Shown here in pieces: positions 3,560 through 60,143 of a stretch of 64,000 bases of DNA. The stretch spans positions 1,464-65,463 of the forward strand of contig JBDRHE010000085.1 of the NCBI GenBank assembly GCA_043817155.1, written 5' to 3'. Under the pieces are notes generated by a model. That model had not been told where the DNA came from, did not search any database, and was given only the letters and a program-made list of their open reading frames with translations. This DNA comes from Candidatus Omnitrophota bacterium (GTDB lineage: Bacteria; Omnitrophota; Gorgyraeia; JABMRN01; RBG-13-46-9). Position numbers and translations under genes: made by a program. Each line of letters opens with the position of its first letter. Positions within the stretch are counted from its first letter, which is position 1.

Positions 3560-3938
3560 ATCGCTATTTATCCCATCGTTATCACACCATCTTCAAAGTC
3601 AATAAGAAAACAGGCGTAGCGATCAGCTCGTGTGGGACAATTCTTCCGCTTGCCCCGTTCCAAATCGCCCTATAAAAGCATTTGGATAAAGAAGATGTTC
3701 TCTGCGCAGAATACTTTTGCAATAGCTAAAAGTTTTAGTGGGCGATTTGTAACGGGGCTTGCCGCCCTGAAAGATGAACGATCATCTTTCATAGCTCTCA
3801 TCCAAATTTCATATTGTCATAAAAGGACAAAAGATTGTCCTAAGATGTCATAATTCTTTATGGATCGATTGTATATGAAATTTGGAGAGTCGCTACAGAA
3901 TTGCCCCACACGAGCATCATTAGAGCGTGTAAGCCAGA

Positions 3939-4129
3939 GGTGAGGGGCTTCGGCGTGGGCTCATATTCTTCTTTTGTCTCTTTACAAGGTGAGAGTTGGT
4001 AATACAAGGTATTCGTATATCCTGGCTTACGGCATTTCCTAAAGATACCAACGATCACCTTATAAAGAGACAAGATAGAAGAATCTCGGCATAATATTTT
4101 ATGCTGAGACTGCGCCGAAGACCCTCACC
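3939..4129. repeat. ~190-bp nested inverted-repeat element (outer arms ~17 bp, inner arms ~29 bp); MITE-like or structured RNA
   Basis: Outer arm GGTGAGGGGCTTCGGCG (3939..3955) pairs with GCGCCGAAGACCCTCACC (4112..4129). Inner arm TATTCTTCTTTTGTCTCTTTACAAGGTGA (3964..3992) pairs with TCACCTTATAAAGAGACAAGATAGAAGAAT (4055..4084), nearly perfect. Confidence 0.6.
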
Positions 4130-4454: not shown

Positions 4455-4532
4455 CGGGGAGTAGCGCAGCCTGGCTAGCGCGCTTGCTTCGGGAGCAAGA
4501 GGTCGCGGGTTCGAATCCCGCCTTCCCGACCA
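4455..4532 (+). tRNA. tRNA-Pro (anticodon CGG), CCA encoded
   Basis: Manual fold: acceptor CGGGGAG/CTTCCCG (one GU pair), D-stem GCGC/GCGC, anticodon stem CTTGC/GCAAG with loop TTCGGGA, T-arm GCGGGTTCGAATCCCGC, discriminator A, then CCA. Confidence 0.85.
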
Positions 4533-8740: not shown

Positions 8741-9628
8741 ATGCTTGAACTGATAGATCAATTCTTAGATTATCTCTCCATCGAAAGGGGCTTGAGTGCC
8801 AATACCATAAAGAGTTACAGGCAGGATCTTATAAAGTATGTCGAATATCTTAAGCGGCATGGCGCAAGGAACGTGGGAGATGTTAAAAGAAACCAGATTA
8901 CGAAGTTTCTATTCTTCTTGAAGGATAGCGGGCTTGCGGCGAATTCCATTTCAAGAAATCTCGTTGCAATAAAGGTATTTTACAGATTTCTGGTATCCGA
9001 GAGGATCGTTAAGGAAGATATCGCAAGCATATTGGAATCCCCGCGTCTGATGAAGAATCTTCCGGATGTGCTGACCGTAGATGAAGTGACGCGGATGATC
9101 GAGGCTTCGGATGTGCGTAACACTTTGGGCGCAAGGGACAGGGCCGCGATGGAGCTTATATATGCTACAGGTATGAGGGTTTCGGAGGTGGTTGAGCTCA
9201 CTCAGGAGAGCCCGAATCTCGATATGGGATTTATAAGATGCGTCGGAAAAGGTTCAAAAGAGCGCATAATCCCTGTAGGTAAGGCAGCCCGAAGCGCTTT
9301 AGAGAGGTATCTCAGAAGATCCAGGCCTAAATTATGCGGGCGCCTTCAAAGTAAGCATCTCTTCCTATCAAGGCTGGGAAAGAAGATCTCACGGCAATCT
9401 TTCTGGAAGATGATAAAGAAATATGCAAAGGCGGCCGGAATAAATAAACAGATATCCCCGCATGTCCTTCGGCACTCATTCGCAACGCACTTGCTTGAAA
9501 AAGGAGCAGATCTAAGAAGCGTCCAGGAGATGCTCGGCCATGCCGACATCGCCACAACTCAAATATATACACATATAAATAAGTCCAGGCTGAAGGGAAT
9601 ACATAAGAAATTTCACCCGAGAGGGTAA
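8741..9628 (+). CDS. site-specific tyrosine recombinase, XerC/XerD family
   Basis: 295 aa; N-terminal SAM-like domain (DQFLDYLSIERGLSANTIKSYRQDL); catalytic R..H..R..Y region (LRHSFATHLLEKGADLRSVQEMLGHADIATTQIYTHI). Confidence 0.85.
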   Translation: MLELIDQFLDYLSIERGLSANTIKSYRQDLIKYVEYLKRHGARNVGDVKRNQITKFLFFLKDSGLAANSISRNLVAIKVFYRFLVSERIVKEDIASILESPRLMKNLPDVLTVDEVTRMIEASDVRNTLGARDRAAMELIYATGMRVSEVVELTQESPNLDMGFIRCVGKGSKERIIPVGKAARSALERYLRRSRPKLCGRLQSKHLFLSRLGKKISRQSFWKMIKKYAKAAGINKQISPHVLRHSFATHLLEKGADLRSVQEMLGHADIATTQIYTHINKSRLKGIHKKFHPRG

Positions 9629-9640: not shown

Positions 9641-9668
9641 TATCCCGCCGTTACTTTTGTATGGCGGG
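9641..9668 (-). terminator. intrinsic-terminator-like hairpin whose U-tract lies on the minus strand
   Basis: ATCCCGCC-N13-GGCGGGAT stem. On the minus strand the hairpin is followed by AATTTTTGGTTTTTT; on the plus strand there is no T-run after it. Confidence 0.4.
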
Positions 9669-9779
9669 ATCGCGCAATGTGCAAGCACGGCGGGAAAAAG
9701 CAACTACCAAAAAGTAAAAGTACAAATGGAAAAAATATTTTTAAATATTTGAATTCATTGCTTTCCAAATTAACTTTTT

Positions 9780-9885
9780 GTCATTCCCGCGGAAGCCTGC
9801 CCGCCTGCGGCAAGCAGGCAAGCGGGAATCCAGACGAAACTCTCGCCTGGATCCCCGCTTGCGCGGGGATGACATGTGAGAAAAG
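9780..9885. repeat. GC-rich double-hairpin intergenic repeat element, copy A (second copy at 60144..60222)
   Basis: GTCATTCCCGCG...GCGGGAATCC (ATTCCC...GGGAAT hairpin, here with a 27-nt insertion), then GGATCCCCGCTTGCGCGGGGATGACATGTGAGAAAAG; near-identical to 60144..60222. Confidence 0.65.
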
Positions 9886-10037
9886 CGGTCATGACAAAGT
9901 TTCGAATGTCAAAACGATATTTCCGTCGATATAGTACAACTCATTTGGAAACGAATGATTTGGTTTGTATTTTTGGTTTTTAGTTTTTGGTCTTTGCTTT
10001 TTTGCAAAAATTATTTAAACTTAGAATTTCAAAAAAG

Positions 10038-12680
10038 ATGGATTTAATAGTTACTCATAATAACGCCGATTTCGATGCATTCAGTTCGCTGGTAGCGGCG
10101 CAAAGGCTCTATCCTGGGGCAAGGCTTCTCATGCCCGGTTCGCAGGAGAGGGCAGTAAGGGAGTTCTTGTCTCTAGTCGGGGACAAGATAAAGATAGAAT
10201 CGGAGAGGACATGTGATCTAAGAGATGTAAAACGCCTCGTACTCGTTGACACAAGGCATAGATCCAGGATAGGCGTGGCGGCTACGATCGTAGATAAGCC
10301 ATCCGTGGAAGTGCATATATACGACCACCACCCGAGAAACCAGAGCGATATTAAGGGGGACAAAGATGTTTTCCGGGAGATAGGGGCTACCGTCTCGATG
10401 CTAATCGATATATTGCGCAGCAAGAACAAGGCGAAGTTTACGGCACTTGAGGCTACAATAATGTTGCTTGGAATATATGAAGAGACCGGTTCCCTGACCT
10501 ATAGAACGACCACACGGTCGGATGTTGATGCCGTTAGCTTTCTGCTTTCCAGGGGCGCGAATCTACAGGCTGTATCGTCGTATCTAAATAGAAAGTTAAC
10601 TGAAGAGGAGCTTACCTTCCTTACCACTCTTATAAGCGGGACGAAGGTGCTTGCTATAAACGGCGTAAATGTCGCCATAGCGCATGGGGAGATAAAGCGT
10701 TTTTTAGGTGAACTTGGCACGATCGTGAGGAAGCTACAGGATGTCGAGAATTTTCCGGTGCTCTTCGTACTCTTCAAAACAGGCAATAAACTACGTATCA
10801 TTGCGCGCAGTCGATTGAAAGAGGTTGACGTTAACAGGATCCTTAAGCAATTCGGCGGTGGTGGGCACAGGAGCGCGGCAAGTGCCAAGATCGAAGGGAT
10901 GGATGCCGAATCCTTCACAGAGCGGCTGGTCACTATCCTTAAGTCCAGCATTAAGACAAGGAGTTTAGCAAGAGATATAATGAGCTCTCCGGTTAAGACC
11001 ATATCCTCTGACAGGAAGATAATTGACGCAAGTGAGATGTTGGGTAGACTCAAGATGAAGGGGATGCCGGTTATGGAGAACAAGAGCCTCGTAGGTGTGA
11101 TCACAACTAGCGATATAAATAAGGCGTTAAAACACCACTATGAGCATGCTCCGGTTAAAGGTTATATGACGCGTACAGTATTAACGATAAGACCAAATAC
11201 GCCTCTACACCAAATACAGAAGACAATGTTCGAAGAGGGTGTAGGCAGACTTCCGGTAGTTCGGGGTAAAACACTCGTTGGGATAGTTACCCGCACAGAT
11301 GTTCTAAAGAGTGTCCACAGGGATATATTTAAAGGAGCGAGGAGGCGCAAGACACGGGGTGATAGGATGAGCTTATCGCGCGAGATGAAGAGGGTCCTGC
11401 CAAAAAAGATGCTTAACATCCTGCAGTCTATAGGCAGGTGCGCTAATAACATTGGGTACAGGGTCTTTGTTGTAGGTGGTTTTGTGAGAGATATGCTCCT
11501 GGGAGCGAAGAATTTCGATATCGATGTGGTTGTGGAAGGTGATGCTATTCTATTTGGCAGAAAGATAGCAGATCTATTCAATGGAAGTTTTGTCGCTTTT
11601 AAAAAGTTTGGGACGTCCAAGGTCGTTATGGATTGGCCAAGCGGGATGTGCAAAACAAGCGGCTCGGGCCCAAAATTTAAAATGGACTTTGCAACTGCGA
11701 GGAAGGAATCATACGAGAAACCGGCGGCGCTGCCTACGGTGGAGTTCAGCCTGCTTAAAGATGATATGCATAGGCGCGATTTTACAATAAACGCCATGGC
11801 AATCAGTCTCAATAAAGGCAGTTTTGGTCAGCTGATAGATTTCTTTGGCGGCGAAAGGGATCTGGAGAATGGTGTTATAAGGGTTCTTCATGACGGAAGT
11901 TTCATCGATGATCCCACGCGCATATTCAGGGCTGTGAGATTTGAGCAGAGGTTCGGGTTTCCGATAGATAGGTATACCGGCTTGCTAATTAAGAATGCGG
12001 TAAAAGAAGAGATGTTCAGCAAAACGCAAAACCATAGGATCAGCGATGAACTTGTATTGATTTTAAGGGAAGACAGCCCGGCCAAGGCAATAAAGCGCAT
12101 GAAAGAGCTCCATGAGTTAAGATTTATCCACAAGAAATTGAAGTTCACAAGATCTACGGGGCGATTATTCAGTAAGGTAAAAAGTTCATTTTATGCGTAT
12201 GATAAGAGCCCGTTTAAAAAGAGACACGTCGATTTATGGCTTATGTACTTGATGGCACTACTGCAGAATATGAGCCTGAAGGATACAAGAGAGATATGTG
12301 ATAAATTTGCTTTCAGGAGGAGCGACAAGCTGAGGCTTTTATCAGCCAAGAAGAATTGCAAAAAGATACGAAGGCTTCTCGCCGCTAAAAGAGTGCCGCC
12401 GGCAAAGGTTTATGGTTTGCTCGAACCCCTCTCTCTGGAGGAGATATTGCTGGTAAGAGCGCAAACAGATAGCAGGTTATTGCATTTGAGGATAAGGGAG
12501 TATTTCGAAAAGCATTGTGGTGTCGCGATAAGGATGGGTGGCGAAGATCTAAAACGTATGGGCCTTGAGCCCGGTCCAATGTACAAAGAGATCCTGACAA
12601 AGGTATTGCATCATAAGGTTGATGGAAATCTCAGAACGAAACGCGAAGAGCTGCAATACGCTAAGAGACTTATAAAATGA
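10038..12680 (+). CDS. multidomain DHH-DHHA1 / tandem CBS / CCA-adding tRNA nucleotidyltransferase (PolyA polymerase family) fusion protein
   Basis: Start probably ATG 10038 (MDLIVTHNNADFDAF); the ORF track extends to 9987. DHH (YDHHPRN) and DHHA1 (GGGGH) motifs, two CBS domains, then nucleotidyltransferase head GGFVRDMLLG..DIDVVV. Confidence 0.85.
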   Translation: MDLIVTHNNADFDAFSSLVAAQRLYPGARLLMPGSQERAVREFLSLVGDKIKIESERTCDLRDVKRLVLVDTRHRSRIGVAATIVDKPSVEVHIYDHHPRNQSDIKGDKDVFREIGATVSMLIDILRSKNKAKFTALEATIMLLGIYEETGSLTYRTTTRSDVDAVSFLLSRGANLQAVSSYLNRKLTEEELTFLTTLISGTKVLAINGVNVAIAHGEIKRFLGELGTIVRKLQDVENFPVLFVLFKTGNKLRIIARSRLKEVDVNRILKQFGGGGHRSAASAKIEGMDAESFTERLVTILKSSIKTRSLARDIMSSPVKTISSDRKIIDASEMLGRLKMKGMPVMENKSLVGVITTSDINKALKHHYEHAPVKGYMTRTVLTIRPNTPLHQIQKTMFEEGVGRLPVVRGKTLVGIVTRTDVLKSVHRDIFKGARRRKTRGDRMSLSREMKRVLPKKMLNILQSIGRCANNIGYRVFVVGGFVRDMLLGAKNFDIDVVVEGDAILFGRKIADLFNGSFVAFKKFGTSKVVMDWPSGMCKTSGSGPKFKMDFATARKESYEKPAALPTVEFSLLKDDMHRRDFTINAMAISLNKGSFGQLIDFFGGERDLENGVIRVLHDGSFIDDPTRIFRAVRFEQRFGFPIDRYTGLLIKNAVKEEMFSKTQNHRISDELVLILREDSPAKAIKRMKELHELRFIHKKLKFTRSTGRLFSKVKSSFYAYDKSPFKKRHVDLWLMYLMALLQNMSLKDTREICDKFAFRRSDKLRLLSAKKNCKKIRRLLAAKRVPPAKVYGLLEPLSLEEILLVRAQTDSRLLHLRIREYFEKHCGVAIRMGGEDLKRMGLEPGPMYKEILTKVLHHKVDGNLRTKREELQYAKRLIK

Positions 12681-16394: not shown

Positions 16395-18494
16395 ATGATA
16401 CAACGTGTTACTAAAATGATAGACAAGAACGAATTAATCATCGAAACCGGGAGGATCGCAAAACAGGCGGACGCTGCAGTTACTGTACAAATGGGCGATA
16501 CAGTTGTGCTTGTCACCTGCGTATGTTCCAAGGGAGTGAGGACAGGCATAGACTACCTTCCATTGATGGTCGAATACAGGGAGAAGACTTACGCTGCCGG
16601 AAAGATACCCGGAGGCTTCTTCAAGAGAGAGGGCAGGCCATCCGAAAAAGAGATCTTAACAGCCAGGCTCATTGATAGGCCCATAAGACCCCTTTTCCCT
16701 GAGGATATGATCAATGACATACAGGTGGTCTCTATGGTACTCTCGAGCGACGGGGAGAATGATTCAGACATACTGGCAGTGATCGGGGCATCGTGCGCGC
16801 TCTCAATTTCCGACATACCGTTTGATGGCCCTATAGGCTGCGTTCGCATCGGGATGATTGATGATAAGTTCGTTATTAATCCAACGTTTCAGGAAATGGA
16901 GATGAGTGCGCTGGATCTAGTCATTGCGGATCACAAGGGCAAGACCATCATGATAGAAGCTGGCGGGAAGGAATTGACCGAAGAAAAGATCGAAGAGGGT
17001 TTCGATTATGCGCAAAAGTATCTGAAAGAGATAGCTGGCTTGCAGAGCGAATTGGTCGCAAAGTGCGGGAAGAAGAAGCGTGAAGATATAGTGATAAGAA
17101 GAGCCGGTGAGGAACTGCTCCTTAAAGTAAAAGAGGCTTCGCAAGACAGGCTAAACGAGATCAATAAGCTGAGCCTGAAAGATCAGAGGGAAGAGGCTCT
17201 CACCATGCTGACCAAGGAGCTTGTTGAGAAATTTGTTACGAAAGAGGGCTCTGTTGAGACGTGGGAGGTTAAGTCTGCCCTTGATTCTCTCGAGAAGGAA
17301 GTGGTAAGAAGCCACATGTTAAAGAGCGACAAAAGGATCGATTCAAGGACATATAAAGATATCCGGCCTATAGAATGCAGCGCAGGTTTTTTGCCGCGTA
17401 CTCACGGATCAGGGTTATTCACCAGGGGTCAGACGCAAGCTCTTTGCGTAACTACATTAGGAACGAGCGCCGATGAGCAGAGGATAGATGCTTTAGAAGG
17501 GGAGACACAAAAATCCTTTATGTTGCATTACAACTTTCCATCATTTAGCGTGGGCGAGGTAAAACCTTTCAGGGGACCGGGTCGTCGGGAGATCGGACAT
17601 GGTGCTCTTGCGGAAAAAGCCTTAAAGCCTGTTATGCCTTCCGGGGAGACATTTCCCTATACCGTCAGGATAGTTTCAGATATACTTGAATCGAATGGCT
17701 CAAGCTCCATGGCCTCCGCGTGCGCTGCGTCCATCTCCTTGATGGATGCCGGTGTCCCGATCAAATCGTCGGTCGCCGGGATCGCTATAGGACTTGTATC
17801 GAAGGGAGATCAGCGCGTGTTCCTGACCGACATAGCAGGCCTCGAAGATCATTATGGAGATATGGATTTTAAGGTTGCCGGCACAAGGAACGGGATCACA
17901 GCTATACAAATGGATCTTAAGATCAAGGGCCTGGATAAAGAGGGGCTTAAGGAAGCCCTAAGCATGGCCAGGGAAGCCCGTTTTAAAGTGCTTGATATAA
18001 TGGATGGCGTTATATCGACACCGAAGGAGAGTATTTCGGATTTTGCACCTCGCATTGTCAATCTTAAGGTTAACCCTGAGAAGATCAAGGATATCATAGG
18101 GCCCGGTGGTAAAATCATCAAGAAGATCATACGCGATTACGGCGTTACTGTTGATGTTGATGATGACGGCAGCGTCCAAGTTGCATCAAACGATGAGAAA
18201 GCTATACAGGCCGCTATTGATGTTATAAAGGGGCTTACCGCTTCTGTTGAAGTGGGGAAGATATATTCGGGTACGATCACGCGTATAATGAATTTCGGAG
18301 CTTTTTGCGAGATCCTTCCCGGGAAAGAGGGGCTTATCCATGTGTCGGAACTTGCAAACAAATTTGTTAAAGAGGTGACACAAGAAGTAAATGTCGGAGA
18401 TAAGGTAAATGTTAAAGTAATTGAGATCGATCAACAGGGTAGGGTCAACTTAAGCAAGAAACAGGCGGAGGCGACAGAGGGTGATCCCAGTTAG
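16395..18494 (+). CDS. pnp: polynucleotide phosphorylase
   Basis: 699 aa; two RNase PH domains, then KH and S1 domains (GKIYSGTITRIMNFGAFCEI). Confidence 0.95.
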   Translation: MIQRVTKMIDKNELIIETGRIAKQADAAVTVQMGDTVVLVTCVCSKGVRTGIDYLPLMVEYREKTYAAGKIPGGFFKREGRPSEKEILTARLIDRPIRPLFPEDMINDIQVVSMVLSSDGENDSDILAVIGASCALSISDIPFDGPIGCVRIGMIDDKFVINPTFQEMEMSALDLVIADHKGKTIMIEAGGKELTEEKIEEGFDYAQKYLKEIAGLQSELVAKCGKKKREDIVIRRAGEELLLKVKEASQDRLNEINKLSLKDQREEALTMLTKELVEKFVTKEGSVETWEVKSALDSLEKEVVRSHMLKSDKRIDSRTYKDIRPIECSAGFLPRTHGSGLFTRGQTQALCVTTLGTSADEQRIDALEGETQKSFMLHYNFPSFSVGEVKPFRGPGRREIGHGALAEKALKPVMPSGETFPYTVRIVSDILESNGSSSMASACAASISLMDAGVPIKSSVAGIAIGLVSKGDQRVFLTDIAGLEDHYGDMDFKVAGTRNGITAIQMDLKIKGLDKEGLKEALSMAREARFKVLDIMDGVISTPKESISDFAPRIVNLKVNPEKIKDIIGPGGKIIKKIIRDYGVTVDVDDDGSVQVASNDEKAIQAAIDVIKGLTASVEVGKIYSGTITRIMNFGAFCEILPGKEGLIHVSELANKFVKEVTQEVNVGDKVNVKVIEIDQQGRVNLSKKQAEATEGDPS

Positions 18495-18539
18495 ATCCAG
18501 GATGGATTGGCGGGAAAACACAACTTAGAAAGAGATCTA
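18481..18539. repeat. ~57-nt repeat overlapping the pnp stop codon (second copy at 23605..23661 overlapping the rimO stop)
   Basis: Copy 1: GTGATCCCAGTTAGATCCAGGATGGATTGGCGGGAAAACACAACTTAGAAAGAGATCTA. Copy 2: GTGATCCCCGTCAGATCCAGGATGGATTGGCGGGAAGACATGACCTAGAAAGGATCTA. AGATCC...GGATCT terminal inverted repeat. Confidence 0.7.
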
Positions 18540-18604
18540 CGGGGGTGATGCCCGTAAGATCCATATATGGATCGTTTAGACTATAATATTAAAAAGGATC
18601 TAAC

Positions 18605-22269: not shown

Positions 22270-23607
22270 ATGAAGCCTGACATATTTATAATTAGCCTGG
22301 GCTGTCCGCGTAATCTTGTGGATTCAGAGGTCTTAATAGGCATGTTGCGGCAGAAGGGTTTTAAGGTCTTTACTGAGTTTACAAAAAATCGCATTGCTAT
22401 AGTGAACACATGCGGGTTTATTGAGGATGCCAAGAGCGAGAGCATTGACATGATCCTCGAGCTGGCAGCCCTGAAGAGAGATGGCAGGCTCGAACATCTT
22501 ATAGTGACAGGCTGTTTTTCACAGCGTTATTCCGATCGCATATTGAAGGAGATAGGAGAGGTCGACGGTATATTCGGGTGTGGCAGTTTTACCGAGATCC
22601 CCGAGTTTATAAACCGTATAGCCGCCGGCGAGAAAGTGGTAAATGTAGATAAGAGGCCGAAGTTCCTATATAACCACACCATGCCAAGAGCGGTCTTAAC
22701 TCCAAGGCACAGCGTGTATGTTAAGATCCAGGAAGGGTGCATGAATCTCTGCAGCTACTGCGTTATTCCTAAAATAAGGGGTCCATACCGCTCAAGAAGC
22801 ATCGACTCTGTTCTAAAGGAGGTATTGCTACTTAAGGAAAGCGGGGCCAGGGAGATAAACCTTGTCGGGCAGGATACGACTCTCTACGGGACCGAGAGAT
22901 ATAAAGCGCCTGTTTTGGGTAAATTGTTAAGGAAGGTATCCCGTATTATGAAGGACGGCTGGGTAAGGCTACTCTATACCCATCCGGCGCACTATGATCA
23001 GGATATAATAGATGCCGTAAAAAATGAGACTTCGATATGCAAATACCTTGATCTGCCGATACAGCACATAAACGACAAGATACTCAAATCGATGAACAGA
23101 CACGTAACCAAGGGAGAGATCGTTGAACTTATAGAGAAGCTTAGACGGTCCATACCGGAAGTTGCGATCCGGACATCGATAATAGTAGGCTTTCCGGGTG
23201 AAGGCGATAAAGAGATGGATGAACTTGCACGCTTTTTAAAGGAGGTTGAATTTGACCGCCTGGGGGTCTTCACATACTCCCGGGAAGAGGGGACGAAATC
23301 CTTCGATCTTCCGGGTCAGGTTGCCGAAGACGAAAAAGAGAGACGGTTAAAGAGGATAATGGAGCTTCAGCAAGATATTTCAGAGAAGCTGAACAGGAGA
23401 TCACTGGGTAGTGTGGTCAAGGTACTCATCGATGATAAGGATAAGACCGAAGCCAACCTGTATTTGGGAAGGACCCAGCACGATGCGCCCTCTGTCGACG
23501 GCACCGTTTATGTACATTCAAAAAAGAGACTGAAGCAAGGGGACTTTGTAGACGCGAAAATAATAGATACACTGGAATACGATCTTGTTGGCAAAGTGAC
23601 ATTGTGA
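22270..23607 (+). CDS. rimO: ribosomal protein S12 methylthiotransferase RimO (radical SAM MTTase)
   Basis: 445 aa; MTTase N domain (ISLGCPRNLVDSE), radical SAM CxxxCxxC (CMNLCSYCVIP), C-terminal TRAM. Confidence 0.75.
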   Translation: MKPDIFIISLGCPRNLVDSEVLIGMLRQKGFKVFTEFTKNRIAIVNTCGFIEDAKSESIDMILELAALKRDGRLEHLIVTGCFSQRYSDRILKEIGEVDGIFGCGSFTEIPEFINRIAAGEKVVNVDKRPKFLYNHTMPRAVLTPRHSVYVKIQEGCMNLCSYCVIPKIRGPYRSRSIDSVLKEVLLLKESGAREINLVGQDTTLYGTERYKAPVLGKLLRKVSRIMKDGWVRLLYTHPAHYDQDIIDAVKNETSICKYLDLPIQHINDKILKSMNRHVTKGEIVELIEKLRRSIPEVAIRTSIIVGFPGEGDKEMDELARFLKEVEFDRLGVFTYSREEGTKSFDLPGQVAEDEKERRLKRIMELQQDISEKLNRRSLGSVVKVLIDDKDKTEANLYLGRTQHDAPSVDGTVYVHSKKRLKQGDFVDAKIIDTLEYDLVGKVTL

Positions 23608-23661
23608 TCCCCGTCAGATCCAGGATGGATTGGCGGGAAGACATGACCTAGAAAGGATCTA
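23605..23661. repeat. second copy of the ~57-nt repeat, overlapping the rimO stop codon
   Basis: See 18481..18539; 47 of 57 positions identical by eye, in an equivalent position relative to a gene stop codon. Confidence 0.7.
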
Positions 23662-43928: not shown

Positions 43929-44759
43929 ATGAAGACAGTAGTTAAGCCGCTTATAATAGCGGTGATTTGTTTGGGTATAGTCGTTCCTTATGAATCATGC
44001 CTTGCTGACATGCGTAAAAATACGCTAAAAACGAAGGAGATAAAGGATATTCCGAGCAGATCAGTAGAACAGCTTGAAAGACTGCTTACGAGCAAAGCGG
44101 AGGTTGTATCAAAGAAAAACGCCGTTTCCAAAGAGATTCAGAACGAAAAGGAGTCCAGGGAAGAGTCTTCCAAAAAGGAACTATTAAGCAAATCCCCAAA
44201 AGGCATAAATTTAGTAGTAGCCCCAAACACGAACAAAGAAAAACTAGCCCTTAAGGAACTGTTTTTTGGTAAACAACCTAAGGATGAGGTGCCTAACATA
44301 AGTAAGGATCTGTTGTTTAAAGACACTATTTCGGCCGATGACGGGTCCGTTTCTTCCTTGACAGGAGACCTTATTAAACCGCTTACCTATGAAGGCCGGA
44401 AAAAGGCGGATGATCCCGGGTTCTCTGTAGGGGCATATATTAAAAGCGTAGTTGAGATGAAAGAGATACCCCTTGAGAAAAACAAAGACACCATTGCAAA
44501 AGACTTGCCGGTTGAAATGAAGCCCTCTTTACAAAAAAAGAGTCTTATGGATAGCGAGCTTATAATACCCCTCAAAGGAGCTCGCAGATCAAGAAGTAGA
44601 CGCATTCTTAAGGATGAATATAACTACGATAATGAAGCACTGTCCGGGAATGGAAGAGGGCCCATAATGTATCGCCATTATGAGGACCACCCCTACATGA
44701 GACTGAATGGCGCTACAATTTCATACACTATCGAACGGAGAGAAACAAGCGTTAATTAA
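43929..44759 (+). CDS. secreted hypothetical protein
   Basis: 276 aa; signal peptide; K/E-rich; no recognised domain. Last plus-strand gene before the strand switch. Confidence 0.45.
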   Translation: MKTVVKPLIIAVICLGIVVPYESCLADMRKNTLKTKEIKDIPSRSVEQLERLLTSKAEVVSKKNAVSKEIQNEKESREESSKKELLSKSPKGINLVVAPNTNKEKLALKELFFGKQPKDEVPNISKDLLFKDTISADDGSVSSLTGDLIKPLTYEGRKKADDPGFSVGAYIKSVVEMKEIPLEKNKDTIAKDLPVEMKPSLQKKSLMDSELIIPLKGARRSRSRRILKDEYNYDNEALSGNGRGPIMYRHYEDHPYMRLNGATISYTIERRETSVN

Positions 44760-44772
44760 TCGTTGTTTATAA

Positions 44773-44828
44773 GCATAAATAAGCTCCTTAGGACCATCGC
44801 AGTGGCCACCCTAAGGAGCTTATTTATG
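44773..44828 (+). terminator. long perfect hairpin (19-bp stem) just after the 43929 gene; terminator-like
   Basis: CATAAATAAGCTCCTTAGG-N17-CCTAAGGAGCTTATTTATG; the loop contains a GTGGCCAC palindrome; followed by TAG rather than a clean T-run. Confidence 0.5.
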
Positions 44829-44919
44829 TAGAGGACGGCCGAAATCTGGCAGCGAAAACCACACATTTAAGATCTTAGCTCCTGTCAAGTAGGCCTAGAA
44901 ACCGCATGGAAATAGCACT

Positions 44920-44957
44920 GTAACAAATGTTACTTGAGGGCATGTAACATCTGTTAC
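44920..44957. promoter_or_regulatory. pair of 14-bp palindromes GTAACA-N2-TGTTAC, 24 bp centre-to-centre
   Basis: GTAACAAATGTTAC (44920..44933) and GTAACATCTGTTAC (44944..44957), both perfect palindromes; a degenerate pair recurs at 45445..45489. Confidence 0.55.
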
Positions 44958-45371
44958 TCGATGGTTTCATACAACTTCGGGGTTACAAGGCACAGCACTC
45001 GCCATTTCGTGATTCCATATTAGCGTCATTAACGGTCCGAAATAGGTTGATTACCTTAGGTAATGGTAACAGCCGATAGAAGGGAGAAAGGGCTCATAAA
45101 GAGGCCTCCAAGGCCTTAAAATGGCCAATGCCGTAGGCATAAAACAGATTGGTTGCTAATTGAATCGGGATCTAAAAAGTTCTACCTCCCACAATGCTCT
45201 TCATGCGATTATATCGATAAACCTCTATAATAGGTTATCCACAGGGGGAAAGCTTTAAATCGCCCAAAAAGAGCAAATTTCTACACCTTTGTCTATGTTC
45301 TCGCCAGACCAAGTACACCTTTGTTCGACTCCAAAACGCCTACTTATACACATTAGCCCCTCTTATCCCCA

Positions 45372-45399
45372 GCGTCCTATAATATATCTTATGTTAACT
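45372..45399. other. dif: dif-like XerC/XerD chromosome dimer resolution site (28 bp)
   Basis: GCGTCCTATAA-TATATC-TTATGTTAACT. Compare E. coli dif GGTGCGCATAA-TGTATA-TTATGTTAAAT and B. subtilis dif ACTTCCTAGAA-TATATA-TTATGTAAACT (both recalled from memory). The XerD arm matches 10/11. It lies in a 1-kb ORF-free region at a convergent strand-switch point. Confidence 0.65.
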
Positions 45400-45444
45400 A
45401 GGGCCTTAGGGGAGGGGAGGTTAGCATGTGTTCGTAGGGCCTAT

Positions 45445-45489
45445 GTAACAAATGTTGCGTTCGTCTTTATGCCATATAACAAATGTGTC
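45445..45489. promoter_or_regulatory. second, degenerate pair of GTAACA-N2-TGTTAC-like sites just right of dif
   Basis: GTAACAAATGTTGC (45445..45458; 13/14) and ATAACAAATGTGTC (45476..45489; 11/14). Confidence 0.4.
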
Positions 45490-45796
45490 GCGATCCCATA
45501 GTTTTAAGCGCTATTCAACGTTTATGCGTTAAACATATCCTATTAGGACGCACCGCCACTTTACTAAATATCCCCTATTCACTCAAGCCTTCAATAGCGC
45601 GTGATATAGAGGTTTATCTATATGATAGTGCCCCTATATATGTCTATTATTAACTACTTTGGGGTGGGTATTTGCTGCTTCTTTAGAAAGGAAATTCCGG
45701 GCTCGTTTAAATCGCGAGAGGTCTAATAAGCAACTCGGGGTATCGAAATATTACTGAATTCTTAACGGCTTAAGGCGTCTCTAATAAATGCTCTAA

Positions 45797-46447
45797 TCAA
45801 AGTTCGGATTCGATCTCGCGGATCAGGTTATCGACATCCTTTACAATCTGCGCAGGTAGCATTTTGGATATCTTAAGCTCCCTGCTGATGGACTTTAAAG
45901 CGCTCAGGAAGCGCTTAAGAATGGCTTGTTTCTTCTTTTTCCAAGCCTCTTCAGGCTGAAGTTCCTCGCGTTGCTTTATGAGGGCTGTAAGGTCCTTCTT
46001 TACATCCTTTGCGTCTTTCCCTTTTTGAAGAACGTTCTGCTTTATGGTTTCATATTCCTCTTTATCGATATCCTTCTTCTTGCTGGCAAGCCGTAGGGCA
46101 TCGACAGACTCATAAGTAGGCAGAGATGCAGCGGAAACGCCTTCATGGTAACCCTTGTTAAGGTACCTGGGCTCTTCTTTTTCAAGAAAATAGTATGACC
46201 TTAGCAACTTGAGAGCGGTCTGCTTCCGTATGCCTATCTCCTTTATGGCATATGCATCGAAAGTACCATATCCCCAGTCCCTGTACATCTTATCCTTCCA
46301 CACGGTGTGAAGAGCCTGTCCCAGATCTACCCAGGATGTTTTAAACGATTTGGCATTTTCCAGGATCTGATATCTAAGGGTCCCTTTGGCCACGTTTTCC
46401 ATCTTCTGTTCTAAGTTTTCTATGGTCTTAGTCTTAATAACACTCAT
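45797..46447 (-). CDS. hypothetical protein with predicted HTH; first minus-strand gene after the strand switch
   Basis: 216 aa; WKDKMYRDWGYGTFDAYAIKEIGIRKQTALKLLRSY helix-turn-helix-like segment; K/E-rich coiled-coil C-terminus; family not recognised. Confidence 0.5.
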   Translation of the reverse strand: MSVIKTKTIENLEQKMENVAKGTLRYQILENAKSFKTSWVDLGQALHTVWKDKMYRDWGYGTFDAYAIKEIGIRKQTALKLLRSYYFLEKEEPRYLNKGYHEGVSAASLPTYESVDALRLASKKKDIDKEEYETIKQNVLQKGKDAKDVKKDLTALIKQREELQPEEAWKKKKQAILKRFLSALKSISRELKISKMLPAQIVKDVDNLIREIESEL

Positions 46448-46983
46448 TTATCACCGCCTTTTTGAAAGCCTTATTTTTAGGGATAATATACTACATTGCA
46501 CTGAAAGAGTCAAATGAAAAAGATTCGAAGCATAATACATAAATTAGCACACCTGCCTGCCGGCCCACCTGTTTTTGTGCCCCCCCTCCCCCAGTTTGGA
46601 CGAAATGGGCAAAAACCGAGTTATACCTTGACATTTTAGCTATAATATGCTAATATTACAGCGTCTAAGGCGAATGGAACAAAGGATCTATTGGCGATTT
46701 TGTGGAATACAAGAACTGTTTGAACACGCACTGTTACTCACCAGTCAGCATCATACCATTCATGAGATCCCTAAACACATATTATAGGCCTGTTATATAT
46801 AACGTTATTTAAGTAGGTCATTGATTGAGGGTGCCCGCATGTAGGCGCCATTTCGTGTAATAGTGATAAAAAAGGAGGGTCAAATAGGTTAAGGAATAAG
46901 ATCGGTTTTTGTGTTTTAGGTGAACATTTTGTTCCGCATAAAGAATTATTTGATGCGGAAAACTAAGAAGGAGAATGAGAGAA

Positions 46984-47312
46984 TGGAACAAGTCAGTAAA
47001 TTGTACGTAGGCAACCTCGAATATTCAACAACAGAAGAAGACATTAAGGCTCACTTTGAGGAAAAAGGAATAAAGACAAAATCAGTAACCCTTATAAAGG
47101 ATAAATATACGGGTCGCGCAAAAGGTTTCGGCTTTGTAGAAGTGGAAACGGAATCGGAGATCGAAAAAGCGATCGAAGCACTGGACGGCCAGGACCTTAA
47201 GGGTCGCAAGCTTACAGTCAACAAGGCAAAGCCACCGAGAGAGCGATCAGACAATCCCAGAGGCGGCGGCGGAGGCGGATTTGGAGGCGGAAGAGGAGGC
47301 TCCAGGTTCTAA
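46984..47312 (+). CDS. RRM-type RNA-binding protein with glycine-rich C-terminus
   Basis: RNP2 LYVGNL and RNP1 KGFGFVEV motifs; RGGGGGGFGGGRGGS tail; ATG 46984 with AAGGAG SD. The 5' UTR has a CCGCAT-N13-ATGCGG stem-loop. Confidence 0.8.
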
Positions 47313-47331
47313 TACCGTAGTCTTATAAAAT

Positions 47332-47360
47332 AAAAAAGGCGGGTTAAAAGCCCGCCTTTT
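47332..47360. terminator. bidirectional rho-independent terminator between convergent genes
   Basis: AAAAAAGGCGGG-TTAAAA-GCCCGCCTTTTTT: GC stem with an A-tract on one side and a T-tract on the other. Confidence 0.7.
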
Positions 47361-48134
47361 TTATTGCGCCTTGGGATATTTCCCGCCCAGGGCATCTCTT
47401 ATCATATCCTTAACTGTCTTGCTGAAATCCTGACTCAATATCCATTGCAGATACGAAGGCTCCTTCTGGGCTATCTTCCTTATGCTCTGCTTCCTGGCAA
47501 ACTTACCGAATACCGGGTATAATTCTCCGTTCCACCAGCGGAACTTGCGTTCTTTATCAAAATATTGCGTCGATCTCTCATAGTCGATTTCCCTTAAGGA
47601 CTCAACACCGGTATCAATTGCGCCATACTTCTTGACCTGAGCGCCCAGTATCTCAAGCGTCGCTTCTACATCCCCTAGCGCCGAATGAGCGTTAACGAGC
47701 TCCTTCTGGCAATAGAACTGGTAAGCAGCGGTCAGCGTCCGTTTCTCATGGATGTGGTATATCTTCTGCGCGTCGTAAACGATTCTGTCGCGGCGCTCAA
47801 ACCTTAAACCGGCTTCGACAAGCTCCCTCTCCAGTATCGGCAGGTCGAACCGCTCTATCCCAAAACCGGCCAGATCCGAGTCTCCTATAAATGAGAGCAC
47901 CTCTTTAGCGATCGCTTTAAACGGAGGAGCCCCTTCCAGATCCTTGTCGTTTATGCCCGTTATCTTGGTTACGGCGGAGGGCATCGGCATCCCGGGATTT
48001 GTGCGCTTCACAAATTCTATCTTTGAACCATCAGTCAAGCATTTTATCATCCCGATCTCTACGATCCTATCCCTCTCTATCCATGTTCCCGTAGTTTCGA
48101 GATCCAATATCACCAGGGGCCGCGCAATTTTCAT
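47361..48134 (-). CDS. DEDDh-family 3'-5' exonuclease (DnaQ/PolC-exonuclease-like) with C-terminal extension
   Basis: 257 aa; exo I VILDLETTG, exo III H-x4-D (AHSALGDVEAT). Confidence 0.7.
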   Translation of the reverse strand: MKIARPLVILDLETTGTWIERDRIVEIGMIKCLTDGSKIEFVKRTNPGMPMPSAVTKITGINDKDLEGAPPFKAIAKEVLSFIGDSDLAGFGIERFDLPILERELVEAGLRFERRDRIVYDAQKIYHIHEKRTLTAAYQFYCQKELVNAHSALGDVEATLEILGAQVKKYGAIDTGVESLREIDYERSTQYFDKERKFRWWNGELYPVFGKFARKQSIRKIAQKEPSYLQWILSQDFSKTVKDMIRDALGGKYPKAQ

Positions 48135-53256: not shown

Positions 53257-53390
53257 TTTTTCTTTCTAAATAACTCCCGTTTTCAAAAAAACACCTTGAT
53301 TTATTTTAACATGCAAACAAAAGGAATCCTACAACTATTTGACAATTATTACACTGACTTTATACAGTTTATCAGCTTTGATTGCACATC

Positions 53391-53550
53391 CGCCTGCCAT
53401 TGCGAGTACGGGCGGGCAGGCCCGCCTGCCATTGCGAGTACGGGCGGGCAGGCCCGCCTGCCATTGCTAATACGGGCGGGCAGGCCCGCCTGCCATTGCT
53501 AATACGGGCGGGCAGGCCCGCCTGCCATTGCTAATACGGGCGGGCAGGGA
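53391..53550. repeat. tandem direct repeat, 5 x 32 bp (CGCCTGCCATTGCGAGTACGGGCGGGCAGGCC), each unit with a GGCAGG/CCTGCC mini-palindrome
   Basis: Unit starts at 53391, 53423, 53455, 53487, 53519. The first two units have GCGAGTAC, the last three GCTAATAC; no spacers between units. Confidence 0.85.
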
Positions 53551-56347: not shown

Positions 56348-56480
56348 TTCGTCTTTGCGAGGTGCCGTAAAAAGCTAGCGCACCGAAGCAATCTCAAGCT
56401 AGCTCGATGAGATTGCCTGCCTAGCGGCAAGGCCGCTGGCTTCGGCACGCTCGATTATTCCGGTGCCTCGCAAAGACGAG
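56348..56480. repeat. ~130-bp inverted-repeat element with nested palindromes (MITE- or sRNA-like)
   Basis: Arms TTCGTCTTTGCGAGGTGCCG (56348..56367) and CGGTGCCTCGCAAAGACGAG (56461..56480). Inner GCGCACCGAAGC/GCTTCGGCACGC and AATCTCA-AGCTAGCT-CGATGAGATT. Shares GGCAAGGCCGCTGGC (56426..56440) with 60256..60270. Confidence 0.6.
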
Positions 56481-57761: not shown

Positions 57762-58853
57762 TTATATTCGAAAGACGGAATCGAAATCGCCGTATGGGTT
57801 CTTTTCCTTTTCCGTATTTTCAGGATCCCAGAGCCAAAGTCCATCAGCCACAAACTTATATCTGTACCGGCCGGGCAAGAGGTATATGGACTTCTCCCAA
57901 TTGCCTTCTTCACTCCTTATAAGCTTGCTCGCAACATCGACCTTCCAATCATTAAAATCCCCGACAACATAGACGTCATTGGCCTTCGGGGCGAACAATT
58001 TAAAGATCTTCTCTTTTGAATAGACATTACCGTAAGCCCCATGCATTATCTTGCGCATCTCCTGATAGACGCTCTTAGCCGATTCCTCACTGTCGCGCAC
58101 AAGGAGCTCTTCTGCCATTGCCAGGTAATCATGAGCTGCCCTCGACTCAGCATACTCGGTAAATATCGACTGTGTCTTCTCCTGCGCTTGCCGCACGGCT
58201 GTATCGAAAGAGATCATCGCGGAAAAAAGTTTCTCTTTAAATATATACTTGATCTTAGCAAGCATCTTTATGGAAAAATCGGAATACTCATCGTACATAA
58301 CTACCAGGCCCCTTAAGTTGGGGGCGTGATGTAGCTTTATCTTGATGAGCTCGACCATGCTGATCAATTTCCCGACACCCATTATAGCGAATGCGCTCGT
58401 CTCTACGGGTATTATGATCTCGCCGGCTGCCCTGAGAGCATTAAAGGTCAAGAATCCCAGGTTAGGAGGGCAGTCGATAACAATATAGTTGTAGTCAGGG
58501 GCGCATCGCATAATAGCCCGTGAAAGTATTAAGAGACCGTCCTGCCTCTCTTTCAGATCCTGCTCTATGGTGCTGAGTATAATATGAGAAGGGACCAGAT
58601 CCAATCCCCTCTCCAGGTTTATGGATATATCGTCGATCTTCTTTATCTTCTCCGGATCGTTCGTAAATAATGTGACTATGGACTTGAATGGGTCGACCTT
58701 TAGAACCCCAAGCCCTATCGTGGCGTGCGATTGTGGATCGAGGTCTATGAGGAGAACGTTCTTGCCTTTCTTTGCCAGGGCAGCAGCGAGGCATGTAGCA
58801 GTGGTGGTCTTTCCACAACCACCTTTTTGATTAGCTATTGCGAATATCTTCAT
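57762..58853 (-). CDS. ParA/MinD-type P-loop ATPase fused to a C-terminal CBM48 / AMPK-beta-type glycogen-binding domain
   Basis: 363 aa; deviant Walker A KGGCGKTT, ParA-like core to ~aa 255, then VYVVGDFNDWKVDVASKLIRSEEGNWEKSIYLLPGRYRYKFVADGLWLWDPEN matching the V.V.G.FN.W...L...G.W...L.PG.Y.YKF.VDG.W..DP pattern of AMPK-beta GBD/CBM48. Confidence 0.75.
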   Translation of the reverse strand: MKIFAIANQKGGCGKTTTATCLAAALAKKGKNVLLIDLDPQSHATIGLGVLKVDPFKSIVTLFTNDPEKIKKIDDISINLERGLDLVPSHIILSTIEQDLKERQDGLLILSRAIMRCAPDYNYIVIDCPPNLGFLTFNALRAAGEIIIPVETSAFAIMGVGKLISMVELIKIKLHHAPNLRGLVVMYDEYSDFSIKMLAKIKYIFKEKLFSAMISFDTAVRQAQEKTQSIFTEYAESRAAHDYLAMAEELLVRDSEESAKSVYQEMRKIMHGAYGNVYSKEKIFKLFAPKANDVYVVGDFNDWKVDVASKLIRSEEGNWEKSIYLLPGRYRYKFVADGLWLWDPENTEKEKNPYGDFDSVFRI

Positions 58854-58939: not shown

Positions 58940-59150
58940 AATAGTAGATCAACCATGTATCAATTGCATTTCGATTATTTTCAATCAATTTCAATGTATA
59001 TCAACCGTATATATCTTGCGCTAACAGCTTTAAGCTCTAAGCCTTAAGCTATAAGCCCTAACTTGAACTACATTGAAATACAATTGAAATAAATGGAAAT
59101 GCAATAGAAATACAATTGTATATCTACGTATATCAACCGCATTTCAAAGC
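58940..59150. repeat. AT-rich iteron/inverted-repeat region upstream of the ParA-CBM48 gene
   Basis: GTATATCAACCG at 58996 and 59128. ~36-bp imperfect inverted repeats (58961..58996 vs 59068..59104). Central heptad tandem TTTAAGC-TCTAAGC-CTTAAGC-TATAAGC-CCTAAC (59027..59061). Confidence 0.55.
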
Positions 59151-59223: not shown

Positions 59224-60024
59224 TCAGAGTTTGGAAGCGGCCCTGACGCCGTTTTCAAATATACCCAGACCATCAGAGGTTCTCTTGTCCGATCTAGTCC
59301 AGCGCGGATGCTGCGTATAGCAGATGTGCCTTTCGGGGTGCGGCATGAGACCAAATATCCTACCTGTCCTGTCGCATATGCCCGCAATATTATTAACCGA
59401 ACCGTTCGGGTTGTCCGGGTATTGCGGATCCTTTCCGGATCCGGTGCAATACTTAAATACGATCTGGCCGTTCTCCCTCAATTTTTGCAGCACCTTATCG
59501 TTCTTGGGAATGAACTTTCCCTCGGCGTGAGCAACAGGCAGATATATAATATCTTTCATACCTTTCGTCCATACGCAGCGCGATCCGCGCCCCTTATGGC
59601 GTGGGCTTCTCAGATATACCCAGCGATCCTCGAATTTTCCTGAATCGTTTATACTTAGAGTAACGTCTAGCTTGCCTAGCCCCGCCACCGGGTCCGGCAA
59701 TAGCCCCGACTTCGCAAGCACCTGGAAACCGTTACATATACCGATCATCAGTTTCCCGTCAGCTACAAAGTCTCCAACCTCACGGGATAGTTTAAATCTT
59801 ATTTCATTGGCAAGGATCTTCCCGCTTGCTATGTCATCCCCGTAAGTAAAACCACCAGGTAGCGCTAGAATGCTGTAATCATTCAGAAGGACTTTTCGAG
59901 ATATGATCTTGTTCACGTGAATAAGGTCGCATGACGCCCCGACCTTCTTGAATGCATACGCTGTCTCTACGTCACAATTCGTACCGGCGGTCCTTAAAAC
60001 TAAAACTTTAACTTTCTTAATCAT
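59224..60024 (-). CDS. purQ: phosphoribosylformylglycinamidine synthase I (glutaminase subunit)
   Basis: 266 aa; class I GATase with ICNGFQVL catalytic Cys and HPER His motif (GLMPHPER). Confidence 0.85.
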   Translation of the reverse strand: MIKKVKVLVLRTAGTNCDVETAYAFKKVGASCDLIHVNKIISRKVLLNDYSILALPGGFTYGDDIASGKILANEIRFKLSREVGDFVADGKLMIGICNGFQVLAKSGLLPDPVAGLGKLDVTLSINDSGKFEDRWVYLRSPRHKGRGSRCVWTKGMKDIIYLPVAHAEGKFIPKNDKVLQKLRENGQIVFKYCTGSGKDPQYPDNPNGSVNNIAGICDRTGRIFGLMPHPERHICYTQHPRWTRSDKRTSDGLGIFENGVRAASKL

Positions 60025-60143
60025 TTGTCAACTAAATGTTTGTCGTTTCCACCCAACTTTTGTCATTCCCTCTAACTTTGCCACATGGCATCATGAAACC
60101 CCTTTGAAGACTTTGAGTTCCGAAGCAATCTTATCACCCCTCT

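Follow-up and report, generated by a model that had tools for sequence, protein, structure and literature searches.

Inverted doublets of a hairpin unit related to the Neisseria dRS3 repeat in intergenic DNA of an Omnitrophota-like bacterium

The two doublets and their loci

The window, i.e. the whole 64-kb stretch of DNA analyzed here, carries two copies of a dispersed intergenic double-hairpin element that resembles repetitive extragenic palindromes (REPs). Copy A is located at positions 9779–9885 and copy B at positions 60143–60222. In each copy, a unit of 28 nt, TGTCATYCCCGCGNAAGCGGGRATCCAG, is present twice in inverted arrangement, and the GTCAT ends point outwards. Judged by their sequence, the copies are inverted doublets of the Neisseria Transformation Sequence (NTS) or of the NTS-like motifs termed Ssn-related motif (SRM), whose core is the dRS3 repeat of Neisseria (Chenal et al., Nat Commun 2025;16:2388, PMC11893778). 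This is a known kind of repeat, described in 2025, in a new host lineage, an Omnitrophota-like bacterium. The best relatives of the PurQ protein encoded beside copy B (52–64% identity) are overwhelmingly from metagenome-assembled genomes (MAGs) of Candidatus Omnitrophota, which makes the host a divergent Omnitrophota-like bacterium with a GC content of about 45%.

Copy A is found in a spacer of approximately 360–410 nt between a xerD-like gene and a gene for a DHH-DHHA1-CBS-PolyA_pol fusion. Copy B is found in the 317-nt spacer between purL and purQ; 4/4 units of the two copies are intergenic. The Pfam assignments bear out the gene context given by an earlier, sequence-only reading of this DNA, i.e. 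copy A after the xerD-like gene and copy B between purL and purQ. The features of the two loci are:

8741–9628, plus strand: XerD-like tyrosine recombinase, upstream of copy A (Pfam Phage_integrase 2.2e-53 and a SAM-like N-terminal domain)
9779–9833, plus strand: copy A unit 1, T-type NTS/SRM TGTCATTCCCGCG...GCGGGAATCCAG with interrupted loop (from the sequence)
9792–9818, plus strand: nested GC-rich hairpin of 27 nt in the loop of copy A unit 1 (from the length difference to copy B)
9834–9846: copy A spacer between its two units (from the sequence)
9847–9874, minus strand: copy A unit 2, C-type NTS/SRM TGTCATCCCCGCGCAAGCGGGGATCCAG (SRM match; 3 mismatches to NTS)
9875–9885, plus strand: copy A tail TGTGAGAAAAG, common to copy B
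9987–12680, plus strand: DHH-DHHA1-CBS-PolyA_pol fusion, downstream of copy A (Pfam; the true start may be later)
59224–60024, minus strand: PurQ, downstream of copy B (Pfam GATase_5 1.4e-78)
60143–60170, plus strand: copy B unit 1, T-type NTS/SRM TGTCATTCCCGCGCAAGCGGGAATCCAT, holding a canonical dRS3 (SRM match; 2 mismatches to NTS)
60171–60182: copy B spacer, last 5 nt (CTCGT) shared with copy A, T-unit-proximal part unrelated to that of copy A
60183–60210, minus strand: copy B unit 2, C-type NTS/SRM TGTCATCCCCGCGAAAGCGGGGATCCAG (SRM match; 3 mismatches to NTS)
60211–60222, plus strand: copy B tail TGTGGGAAAAAG (from the sequence and the 43-nt shared block)
60342–63233, minus strand: PurS-PurL fusion, transcriptionally upstream of copy B (Pfam)

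The hairpin of each unit has an 8-bp stem, ATYCCCGC/GCGGGRAT, and a GMAA loop, the loop sequences being GCAA, GAAA and GCAA when each unit is read on its own strand. In both doublets the left unit is T-type, with the stem ATTCCCGC/GCGGGAAT, and the T-type core GTCATTCCCGCG...AAGCGGGAATCCA is common to copies A and B. The right unit in both is C-type, with the stem ATCCCCGC/GCGGGGAT, and differs from the T-type stem by a fully compensated change of a T-A pair to a C-G pair.

A formal repeat search shows a 43-nt direct repeat of 93% identity between positions 9842–9884 and 60178–60220. This block takes in the final 5 nt of the spacer, the C-type unit and the larger part of the tail (ATGTGRGAAAA). 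The same search shows a 27-nt inverted relation, 93% complementary, between the right hairpin of copy A and the left hairpin of copy B. What the earlier description took as two adjacent hairpins is therefore one 28-nt unit present in two inverted copies, an anatomy more regular than described.

The 28-nt units are separated by 13 nt in copy A and by 12 nt in copy B, and the sequence ATGTGRGAAAA(A)G is found to the right of both copies. A pattern derived from the tail, CGCGGGGATGACATGTGRGAA, has 0 matches in the genome and metagenome contig collections. The copy A spacer, together with the CCAG/CTGG ends of the units, is partly palindromic, CCAGACGA...TCGCCTGG. The T-unit-proximal parts of the two spacers are unrelated, so that A and B cannot be regarded as a single 80-nt element that was simply copied. 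Inspection of the flanks, with the tail counted in or left out, shows no direct repeat at either copy, and the proposed check for a target-site duplication thus came out negative. The term miniature inverted-repeat transposable element (MITE)-like, also applied earlier, is appropriate insofar as the units act as terminal inverted repeats but not with respect to a target-site duplication. The pattern of shared and unshared parts, together with this absence, is consistent with a reshuffling of modules through recombination at conserved cores, a process that has been proposed for dRS3 and the Neisseria intergenic mosaic elements (NIMEs).

Copy A unit 1 is interrupted by the 27-nt insertion in its loop at positions 9792–9818, as had been noted before. 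The insert has its own stem, GCCTGC/GCAGGC; AAGC repeats leave its boundaries uncertain within about 5 nt. The 8-bp stem of the unit is still predicted around the nested hairpin, with −16.6 kcal/mol as DNA. Loop insertions are also found in NTS units of two other loci, L295 and L306.

As single-stranded DNA (ssDNA) the units fold with −9 to −9.8 kcal/mol (e.g. −9.8 kcal/mol for copy A unit 2 and −9.0 kcal/mol for copy B unit 1). Folding z-scores are −5 to −9, and RNA folds have −46 to −72 kcal/mol with z-scores of −5 to −8.6. It was also considered whether the T/C difference forces the doublet into two separate hairpins; this was not supported, as the minimum-energy fold of the DNA is still one long hairpin.

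Relation to NTS, SRM and dRS3

The dRS3 repeat has the form ATTCCC-N8-GGGAAT, and about half of the dRS3 in Neisseria are really a longer oriented motif, NTS, with the published form CGTCATTCCCGCGMAVGCGGGAATCYRG (PMC11893778). dRS3 is the core of the 28-nt NTS, which is in spirit CGTCATTCCCGCGMAVGCGGGAATCCYRG. SRMs are spread across bacterial phyla and are spatially associated with the protein SsnA (PMC11893778). Characteristic of SRM and NTS are numerous copies per genome, nearly all of them intergenic, and a cd10448-type ssn gene in the same genome, often with repeats on its flanks. The published SRM pattern is HGTCWY N(0-2) YYVSBRH N(0-5) WNVSBRG N(0-2) RNCYNB (PMC11893778).

The SRM pattern has exactly three matches in the window, at positions 9847–9874 (minus strand), 60143–60170 (plus strand) and 60183–60210 (minus strand), where 0.18 are expected (mean over 100 dinucleotide shuffles). 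The fourth unit, copy A unit 1, misses the pattern solely through the 27-nt loop insertion. A covariance model, R1, that was built only from units of other organisms gives the three intact units 43–44 bits with E-values of about 1e-9, i.e. 43.7 bits (E = 1.2e-9) for copy A unit 2, 43.1 bits for copy B unit 1 and 44.2 bits (E = 8.9e-10) for copy B unit 2. The model is sensitive to orientation, with 43–44 bits on the forward strand versus 11 bits on the reverse. The next best site, 13 bits, is the interrupted unit, whose low score is due to the insertion. With the filters off, no further diverged copies are above noise in the 64-kb window, and the total is four units. The pattern matches, the model scores and the folding z-scores exclude chance. 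The earlier view of a dispersed intergenic, REP-like double-hairpin element is correct.

Over the 28 positions the three intact units show 2–3 mismatches to NTS. They affect the bases at the two ends of the unit and the stem pair that carries the compensated T-A to C-G change. The first base, T in the window units, is the second commonest base at that position in other loci. The resemblance to dRS3, which had been mentioned purely as a pattern, proves to be homology of the motif, since dRS3 is the core of NTS and the units match NTS with 2–3 mismatches. The ATTCCC-N8-GGGAAT core as such is found in one unit only, the T-type unit of copy B (positions 60148–60167). Both C-type units (ATCCCC...GGGGAT) and the interrupted unit (N35) fail the dRS3 pattern.

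Mutagenesis of NTS has shown that cleavage depends on the GTC directly 5′ of the palindrome, whereas for binding the most critical base is the C directly 3′ of the palindrome; the sequence of the palindrome matters and the loop is dispensable (PMC11893778). The window units keep every one of these published determinants; the palindrome is present in all four, with GTC on the 5′ side of the stem and C on the 3′ side. All four have perfect stems (8/8) with the flanking determinants, within AT-rich intergenic DNA.

Three details are absent from the sections consulted of the published description of NTS and SRM: the tight heterotypic doublet, the compensated C-type variant and the nested hairpin in the loop of a unit (PMC11893778).

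Only two copies are present in the window, and the sequence-only reading had held that, if these were the only ones, a local duplication would be the better explanation. A chance resemblance, or local duplication of a GC-rich palindrome, is however almost certainly wrong. It is refuted by the shuffle controls, by the model scores and by the presence of the unit and of the doublet in hundreds of unrelated contigs, and the two copies are 50 kb apart in unrelated contexts.

Units and doublets in other sequences

The sequence GTCATYCCCGCGNAAGCGGGRATCC is present in at least 120 viral or prophage contigs. At the stem position that distinguishes the T- and C-types, the counts are T-A 114, C-G 16 and mixed 3. 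Among 120 distinct 28-nt SRM units, 96.9% of the stem cells are paired, a fraction inflated by the choice of the set with a partly symmetric pattern, which is a point against the argument from covariation; 5 of the 8 pairs show double-sided changes. None of 500 shuffles reaches the observed covariation (0/500) and no slid register comes near it. On this comparison of sequences, the hairpin is maintained by selection.

The arrangement as a doublet also recurs. After deduplication, 20 close pairs have the GTCAT ends outward and 4 have the opposite arrangement. The exact doublet, i.e. T-type unit, spacer and C-type unit, is found in at least 120 metagenome contigs of 36–70% GC. These doublets have unrelated spacers and flanks; the commonest spacer length, counted between CCA and TGG, is 17–18 nt. 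The T-type/C-type doublet is also present in 7 viral contigs. Strict units are sparse in relatives, 3 in 1.17 Mb.

A preference for heterotypic T/C pairing in short doublets was considered and dropped as too weak; the viral stretches are T/C 7, T/T 8 and C/C 0, and T and C units occur at about 7:1.

In a GC-rich group of metagenome loci (L207, L210, L211, L233, L236, L265, L268, L270, L276, L282 and L304) the T/C doublet is central in a larger palindromic element. The flanks are conserved as an inverted repeat, CTGAAYAA...TTATTCAG. This suggests a longer composite repeat built around the T/C doublet.

IS110-family elements target REP-like palindromes. The units could be attachment or target sites of an IS110/Piv-type recombinase or transposase, as dRS3 is for Neisseria filamentous prophages, and the occurrence in at least 120 viral or prophage contigs is in agreement with this. 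dRS3 is also cited as a phage recombinase target (PMC11893778). We nevertheless consider this explanation very unlikely for the window, where no such gene or prophage adjoins either copy. Both doublets are intact, and the sole insertion is a 27-nt hairpin and not an insertion sequence (IS) or a phage.

Link with the Ssn nuclease

SsnA is a 94-amino acid single-domain GIY-YIG protein of the family cd10448 (PMC11893778). It binds the hairpin only as ssDNA, and its cut is placed a few nucleotides upstream; duplex DNA, RNA and the reverse strand are not acted upon, and binding and cutting of ssDNA only is reported for four Ssn homologs (PMC11893778). In Neisseria, Ssn has a five-fold effect on transformation, and DNA bearing NTS transforms less (PMC11893778).

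A tblastn search with the Ssn-like protein from locus L035 shows single-domain GIY-YIG genes (Pfam PF01541) in seven loci. NTS units are located 5–125 nt from the GIY-YIG gene in six of the seven, and on both sides of it in four. The residues Y8/Y19/E66 of the L035 protein match the published catalytic spacing Y6/Y17/E64 (PMC11893778). Locus L141, in a MAG of the Omnitrophota type whose PurQ is 62% identical to that of the window, contains a frame-disrupted, decayed ssn gene flanked by GTCATTCCCGCGAAAGCGGGAATCCATG. This sequence differs from the T-type unit of copy B, including the CCATG end, by one loop base. An intact Ssn homolog of the Omnitrophota type is present in locus L306. Both L035 and L141 display a forward unit, the gene and a reverse unit (+ gene −), which is the orientation of the units in the window doublets.

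The PDB shows only distant UPF0213 GIY-YIG structures for Ssn and there is no NCBIfam family for it. A search for follow-up literature on Ssn/NTS in the library used found none.

An inverted doublet with a short spacer is also the architecture of a REPIN, i.e. a REP doublet mobilized by a REP-associated tyrosine transposase (RAYT), an IS200/IS605-like Y1 transposase. The consensus head of REPs is GTAG or GTGG. The head of the window unit is GTCAT, and no Y1 transposase is among the 26 open reading frames (ORFs) around the repeats. GIY-YIG genes, not RAYTs, flank the units in the loci examined. The analogy is noted by Chenal et al., yet their genome-wide association screen singled out ssnA and not RAYT (PMC11893778). 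A REPIN mobilized by a RAYT is thus a highly improbable explanation of the doublets.

Genomic context and neighboring remnants

purL and purQ overlap or are at most 79 nt apart in 42 of 72 relatives, and most of the others have a gene-sized gap of about 700–800 nt. The 317-nt purL–purQ spacer of the window is unusual, and copy B is an insertion into a normally tight junction. Two ORFs that overlap the elements, at positions 9677–9934 and 60072–60341, belong to no family and are most likely translations of the repeat.

In addition to copy B, this spacer has possible remnants of repeats, one of which is related to a second doublet elsewhere in the window:

56349–56479: another inverted doublet, SRM-like but with a stem of a different family, CGTCTTTGCGAGG...CCGAAGCAATC (inverted repeat search)
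60058–60070, plus strand: possible T-type left-end remnant TTTTGTCATTCCC (13/13 match to the left edge of copy A, E 0.1–0.24, borderline)
60120–60131, plus strand: possible 3′-half remnant from the second hairpin family, CCGAAGCAATCT (12/12 match to 56383–56394, E about 1, weak)

The doublet at positions 56349–56479 is located between two minus-strand genes and has its GTC heads outward. The published SRM pattern has no match there. A GC hairpin of 24 nt is inserted in its second unit, at positions 56417–56440, and units of the type found in this doublet are present in two viral contigs, again as doublets or mosaics. An orphan copy of the 24-nt insert, 92% identical, is found at positions 60247–60270, 25 nt to the right of copy B. 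With this orphan and the fragments at 60058–60070 and 60120–60131, the purL–purQ spacer looks like a mosaic of repeat modules. The junction ...GCAATCT-N-CCCCTCT-GTC... of the fragment at 60120–60131 is also found in locus L334.

The spacer between a PAS-GGDEF-HD gene and a UPF0047 gene contains a tandem array in perfect register at positions 53390–53548, of five 32-nt GC-rich units CCGCCTGCCATTGCKARTACGGGCGGGCAGGC (98% matches; Tandem Repeats Finder score 290). The reverse complement of the array unit is about 67% similar to the 27-nt insert of copy A, with GCCTGCCCGCC shared. The array unit has 0 matches in the viral contigs.

A REP-like role at the RNA level, which the sequence-only reading had put forward, has to be considered for both copies. 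Hairpins in the purSL–purQ transcript and in the transcript downstream of xerD could block 3′–5′ exonucleases or pause ribosomes or polymerase, which would set a differing stability of the mRNA up- and downstream of the element, and this could coexist with a role at the DNA level. E. coli REPs stabilize upstream mRNA. Both copies are between co-oriented genes, the RNA folds given above are very stable, and there are weak terminator-like sites on the minus strand of the purL–purQ spacer (3 versus 0.5 expected). However, copies A and B are opposite in orientation relative to transcription, and on neither strand is the hairpin followed by a U-tract. In most relatives purL abuts purQ and the element is absent. 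What is conserved across phyla is the exact oriented sequence including the unpaired flanks, which fits a protein–DNA site over a generic RNA stem, and Ssn does not bind the RNA form (PMC11893778). Rfam gives no family at the gathering threshold except tRNA elsewhere in the window, and at permissive thresholds there is miRNA-like hairpin noise at both loci. An effect on the operon mRNA could be a side effect, given the stability of the stems, but it is not favored as the cause of the conservation and is on balance unlikely to be what accounts for the doublets. An intrinsic terminator was rejected separately, as terminator scans flag no site at the doublets and there is no U-tract.

The doublets could also be inert relics, i.e. 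decaying leftovers, without current activity, of an NTS-ssn invasion whose nuclease the lineage later lost. The 64 kb contain two doublets only and no ssn gene, one unit is interrupted, fragments in the purL–purQ spacer are remnant-like, the ssn gene of the related MAG at L141 is itself decayed, and the density in relatives is low (the 3 strict units in 1.17 Mb). Against decay are the four perfect 8/8 stems, with all flanking determinants kept in AT-rich intergenic DNA, and the compensation of the T-to-C difference. We therefore regard inert relics as an unlikely explanation.

Proposed mechanism

The explanation that we consider probable is that the doublets are NTS/SRM sites that are recognized as ssDNA hairpins by a cognate Ssn, and that they are gene-less derivatives of an ssn cassette. 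When the DNA becomes single-stranded in replication, repair or uptake, each unit would fold into the 8-bp hairpin with its GMAA loop. An endonuclease of the Ssn family of GIY-YIG proteins, presumably encoded elsewhere in the genome, would then bind the hairpin via the stem sequence and the 3′ C, and would nick the single strand a few nucleotides 5′ of GTCAT. With the units inverted and the GTCAT ends outwards, one unit should be cleavable on each strand, and the predicted cuts would bracket the doublet. The tail of copy A, which on the minus strand is the 5′ flank of the C-type unit, would by analogy be on the predicted cut side of Ssn.

The doublets have the same orientation as the units of the NTS-ssn-NTS cassette. 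Most simply, a doublet would be a gene-less miniature or mosaic derivative of this cassette that has dispersed into intergenic DNA. We infer that the host encodes a cognate Ssn, that this Ssn cuts these sites and accepts both T-type and C-type stems, and how the copies spread.

Several observations weigh against this explanation. The presence of a cognate Ssn in this genome is presumed, and searches of the 64-kb window for a GIY-YIG or ssn gene (tblastn with three Ssn seeds and two motif scans) found none. The 26 ORFs around the repeat loci are housekeeping genes or have no Pfam match, with no nuclease or transposase among them. An Ssn homolog is present in 81% of genomes with more than 200 SRMs, hence not in all (PMC11893778). 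The units have 2–3 mismatches to NTS, i.e. 2 at positions 60143–60170 and 3 in both C-type units, which is beyond the one mismatch allowed (≤1) in the published search (PMC11893778). A change of the palindrome with its structure kept abolished the activity of the Neisseria enzyme (PMC11893778), and the C-type stem change may matter.

The folding of the whole doublet is a further difficulty. When it is fully single-stranded DNA or RNA, its preferred fold is a single long hairpin of −24.5 to −26 kcal/mol, compared with about −19 kcal/mol for two unit hairpins, and according to the folding model such a long hairpin could hide the units. With respect to mobility, only one end of the doublet would be cleavable per strand, and a simple IS200-like excision does not follow. 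To our knowledge, Ssn-dependent mobility has never been demonstrated.

A broader proposal may be put forward as a doubtful speculation. The T/C doublet would be the non-autonomous form of a selfish NTS-ssn-NTS cassette, an analogue of REPINs and MITEs, and Ssn/NTS an unrecognized class of ssDNA-dependent mobile element spread across phyla of 36–70% GC. The loops would be landing sites for a smaller GC-rich hairpin family, which includes the 27-nt insert of copy A, the 24-nt insert of the 56349–56479 doublet and the 32-nt array.

The Ssn/NTS system, described in 2025 mainly from Neisseria and other Pseudomonadati, is extended here to an uncultivated Omnitrophota-like lineage. The 28-nt site is nearly unchanged in contigs of 36–70% GC, often as a defined inverted doublet. 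For annotation, the element accounts for the spurious small ORFs at 9677–9934 and 60072–60341 and for the long purL–purQ spacer. If the doublets are mobile offspring of the ssn cassette, this bears on a question left open by Chenal et al., namely if the NTS-ssn-NTS cassette is a transposon. As a candidate for a second Ssn specificity, the compensated C-type variant is of relevance to the proposed ssDNA-cutting tools.

Other repeats in the window

Additional repeats were observed in the window. Just after the stop codon of the xerD-like gene there is a hairpin at positions 9644–9672, ATCCCGCC-N13-GGCGGGAT, with a T-rich run on the minus strand only. Its stem resembles the C-type stem but is not the same, and it is without the GTC head. 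Directly upstream of the DHH-CBS-PolyA_pol gene, a T-rich tandem repeat of 13–14 nt, TTTGGTTTKTAKTT, is present in about 2.5 copies at positions 9959–9995.

A 52-nt repeat, 88% identical, is found at positions 18481–18532 and 23604–23655, where it coincides with or closely follows the stop codon of two plus-strand genes that are unrelated to each other. A GATCCA...TGGAT palindrome is part of this repeat, and its first copy is followed by a related half-copy at positions 18540–18575. This is possibly another intergenic repeat family or a shared regulatory site.

Positions 58950–59145 are in the spacer between purQ and a ParA-family ATPase gene with a CBM48/AMPK1_CBM domain (57762–58853, minus strand). 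This region displays two inverted arrays of approximately 11-nt TTGAAATRCAA-like repeats and a repeated GTATATCAACCG around a short central segment, an arrangement that is iteron- or centromere-like.

Long imperfect inverted repeats are located at positions 3652–3758 and 3974–4073, near a tRNA gene at 4455–4529. They have arms of 26–28 nt that are 88–89% complementary and 44–55 nt apart, and their sequence is unrelated to the NTS units.

At about positions 44000–48000, the GC skew, the AT skew and the gene orientation switch sign, with plus-strand genes before and minus-strand genes after, i.e. converging. This could be a replication terminus or merely coding-strand composition.

Comparison with known systems

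Like MITEs, the doublets are small and non-coding, have terminal inverted repeats and are plausibly a gene-less derivative of a longer cassette. Unlike MITEs, they have no target-site duplication, and an internal half-spacer differs between A and B. We know of no transposase for the parent NTS-ssn-NTS cassette.

With REPs, bacterial interspersed mosaic elements (BIMEs) and the REPIN-RAYT system they share the short extragenic palindromes rich in GC, the inversion of the doublets, the placement between genes and within operons, an enzyme that likely recognizes ssDNA hairpins, and the lack of a target-site duplication. The differences are the head, GTCAT instead of GTAG or GTGG, the GIY-YIG nuclease in place of an HUH Y1 transposase, and the absence of a RAYT among the 26 ORFs scanned.

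The comparison with dRS3 and the NIMEs is similar. The T-type unit of copy B holds ATTCCC-N8-GGGAAT and the purL–purQ spacer is mosaic-like. However the C-type and interrupted units fail dRS3, there are no 50–150-bp RS blocks between the units and the host is not Neisseria.

With respect to the NTS/SRM-SsnA system, the window units differ in having 2–3 mismatches to strict NTS, in that half are C-type with ATCCCC/GGGGAT, and in the nested hairpin in one loop. The host is Omnitrophota-like, no ssn is present in the 64-kb window, and the tight inverted doublets with a 12–13-nt gap are not mentioned in the sections consulted of the paper (PMC11893778). The likeness is in the 28-nt oriented hairpin with GTC, the ATTCCCGCG stem, a GMAV loop and C after the stem (PMC11893778). 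In addition, the window units are intergenic and clustered and match the SRM pattern, and an NTS-ssn-NTS cassette is present in a related MAG.

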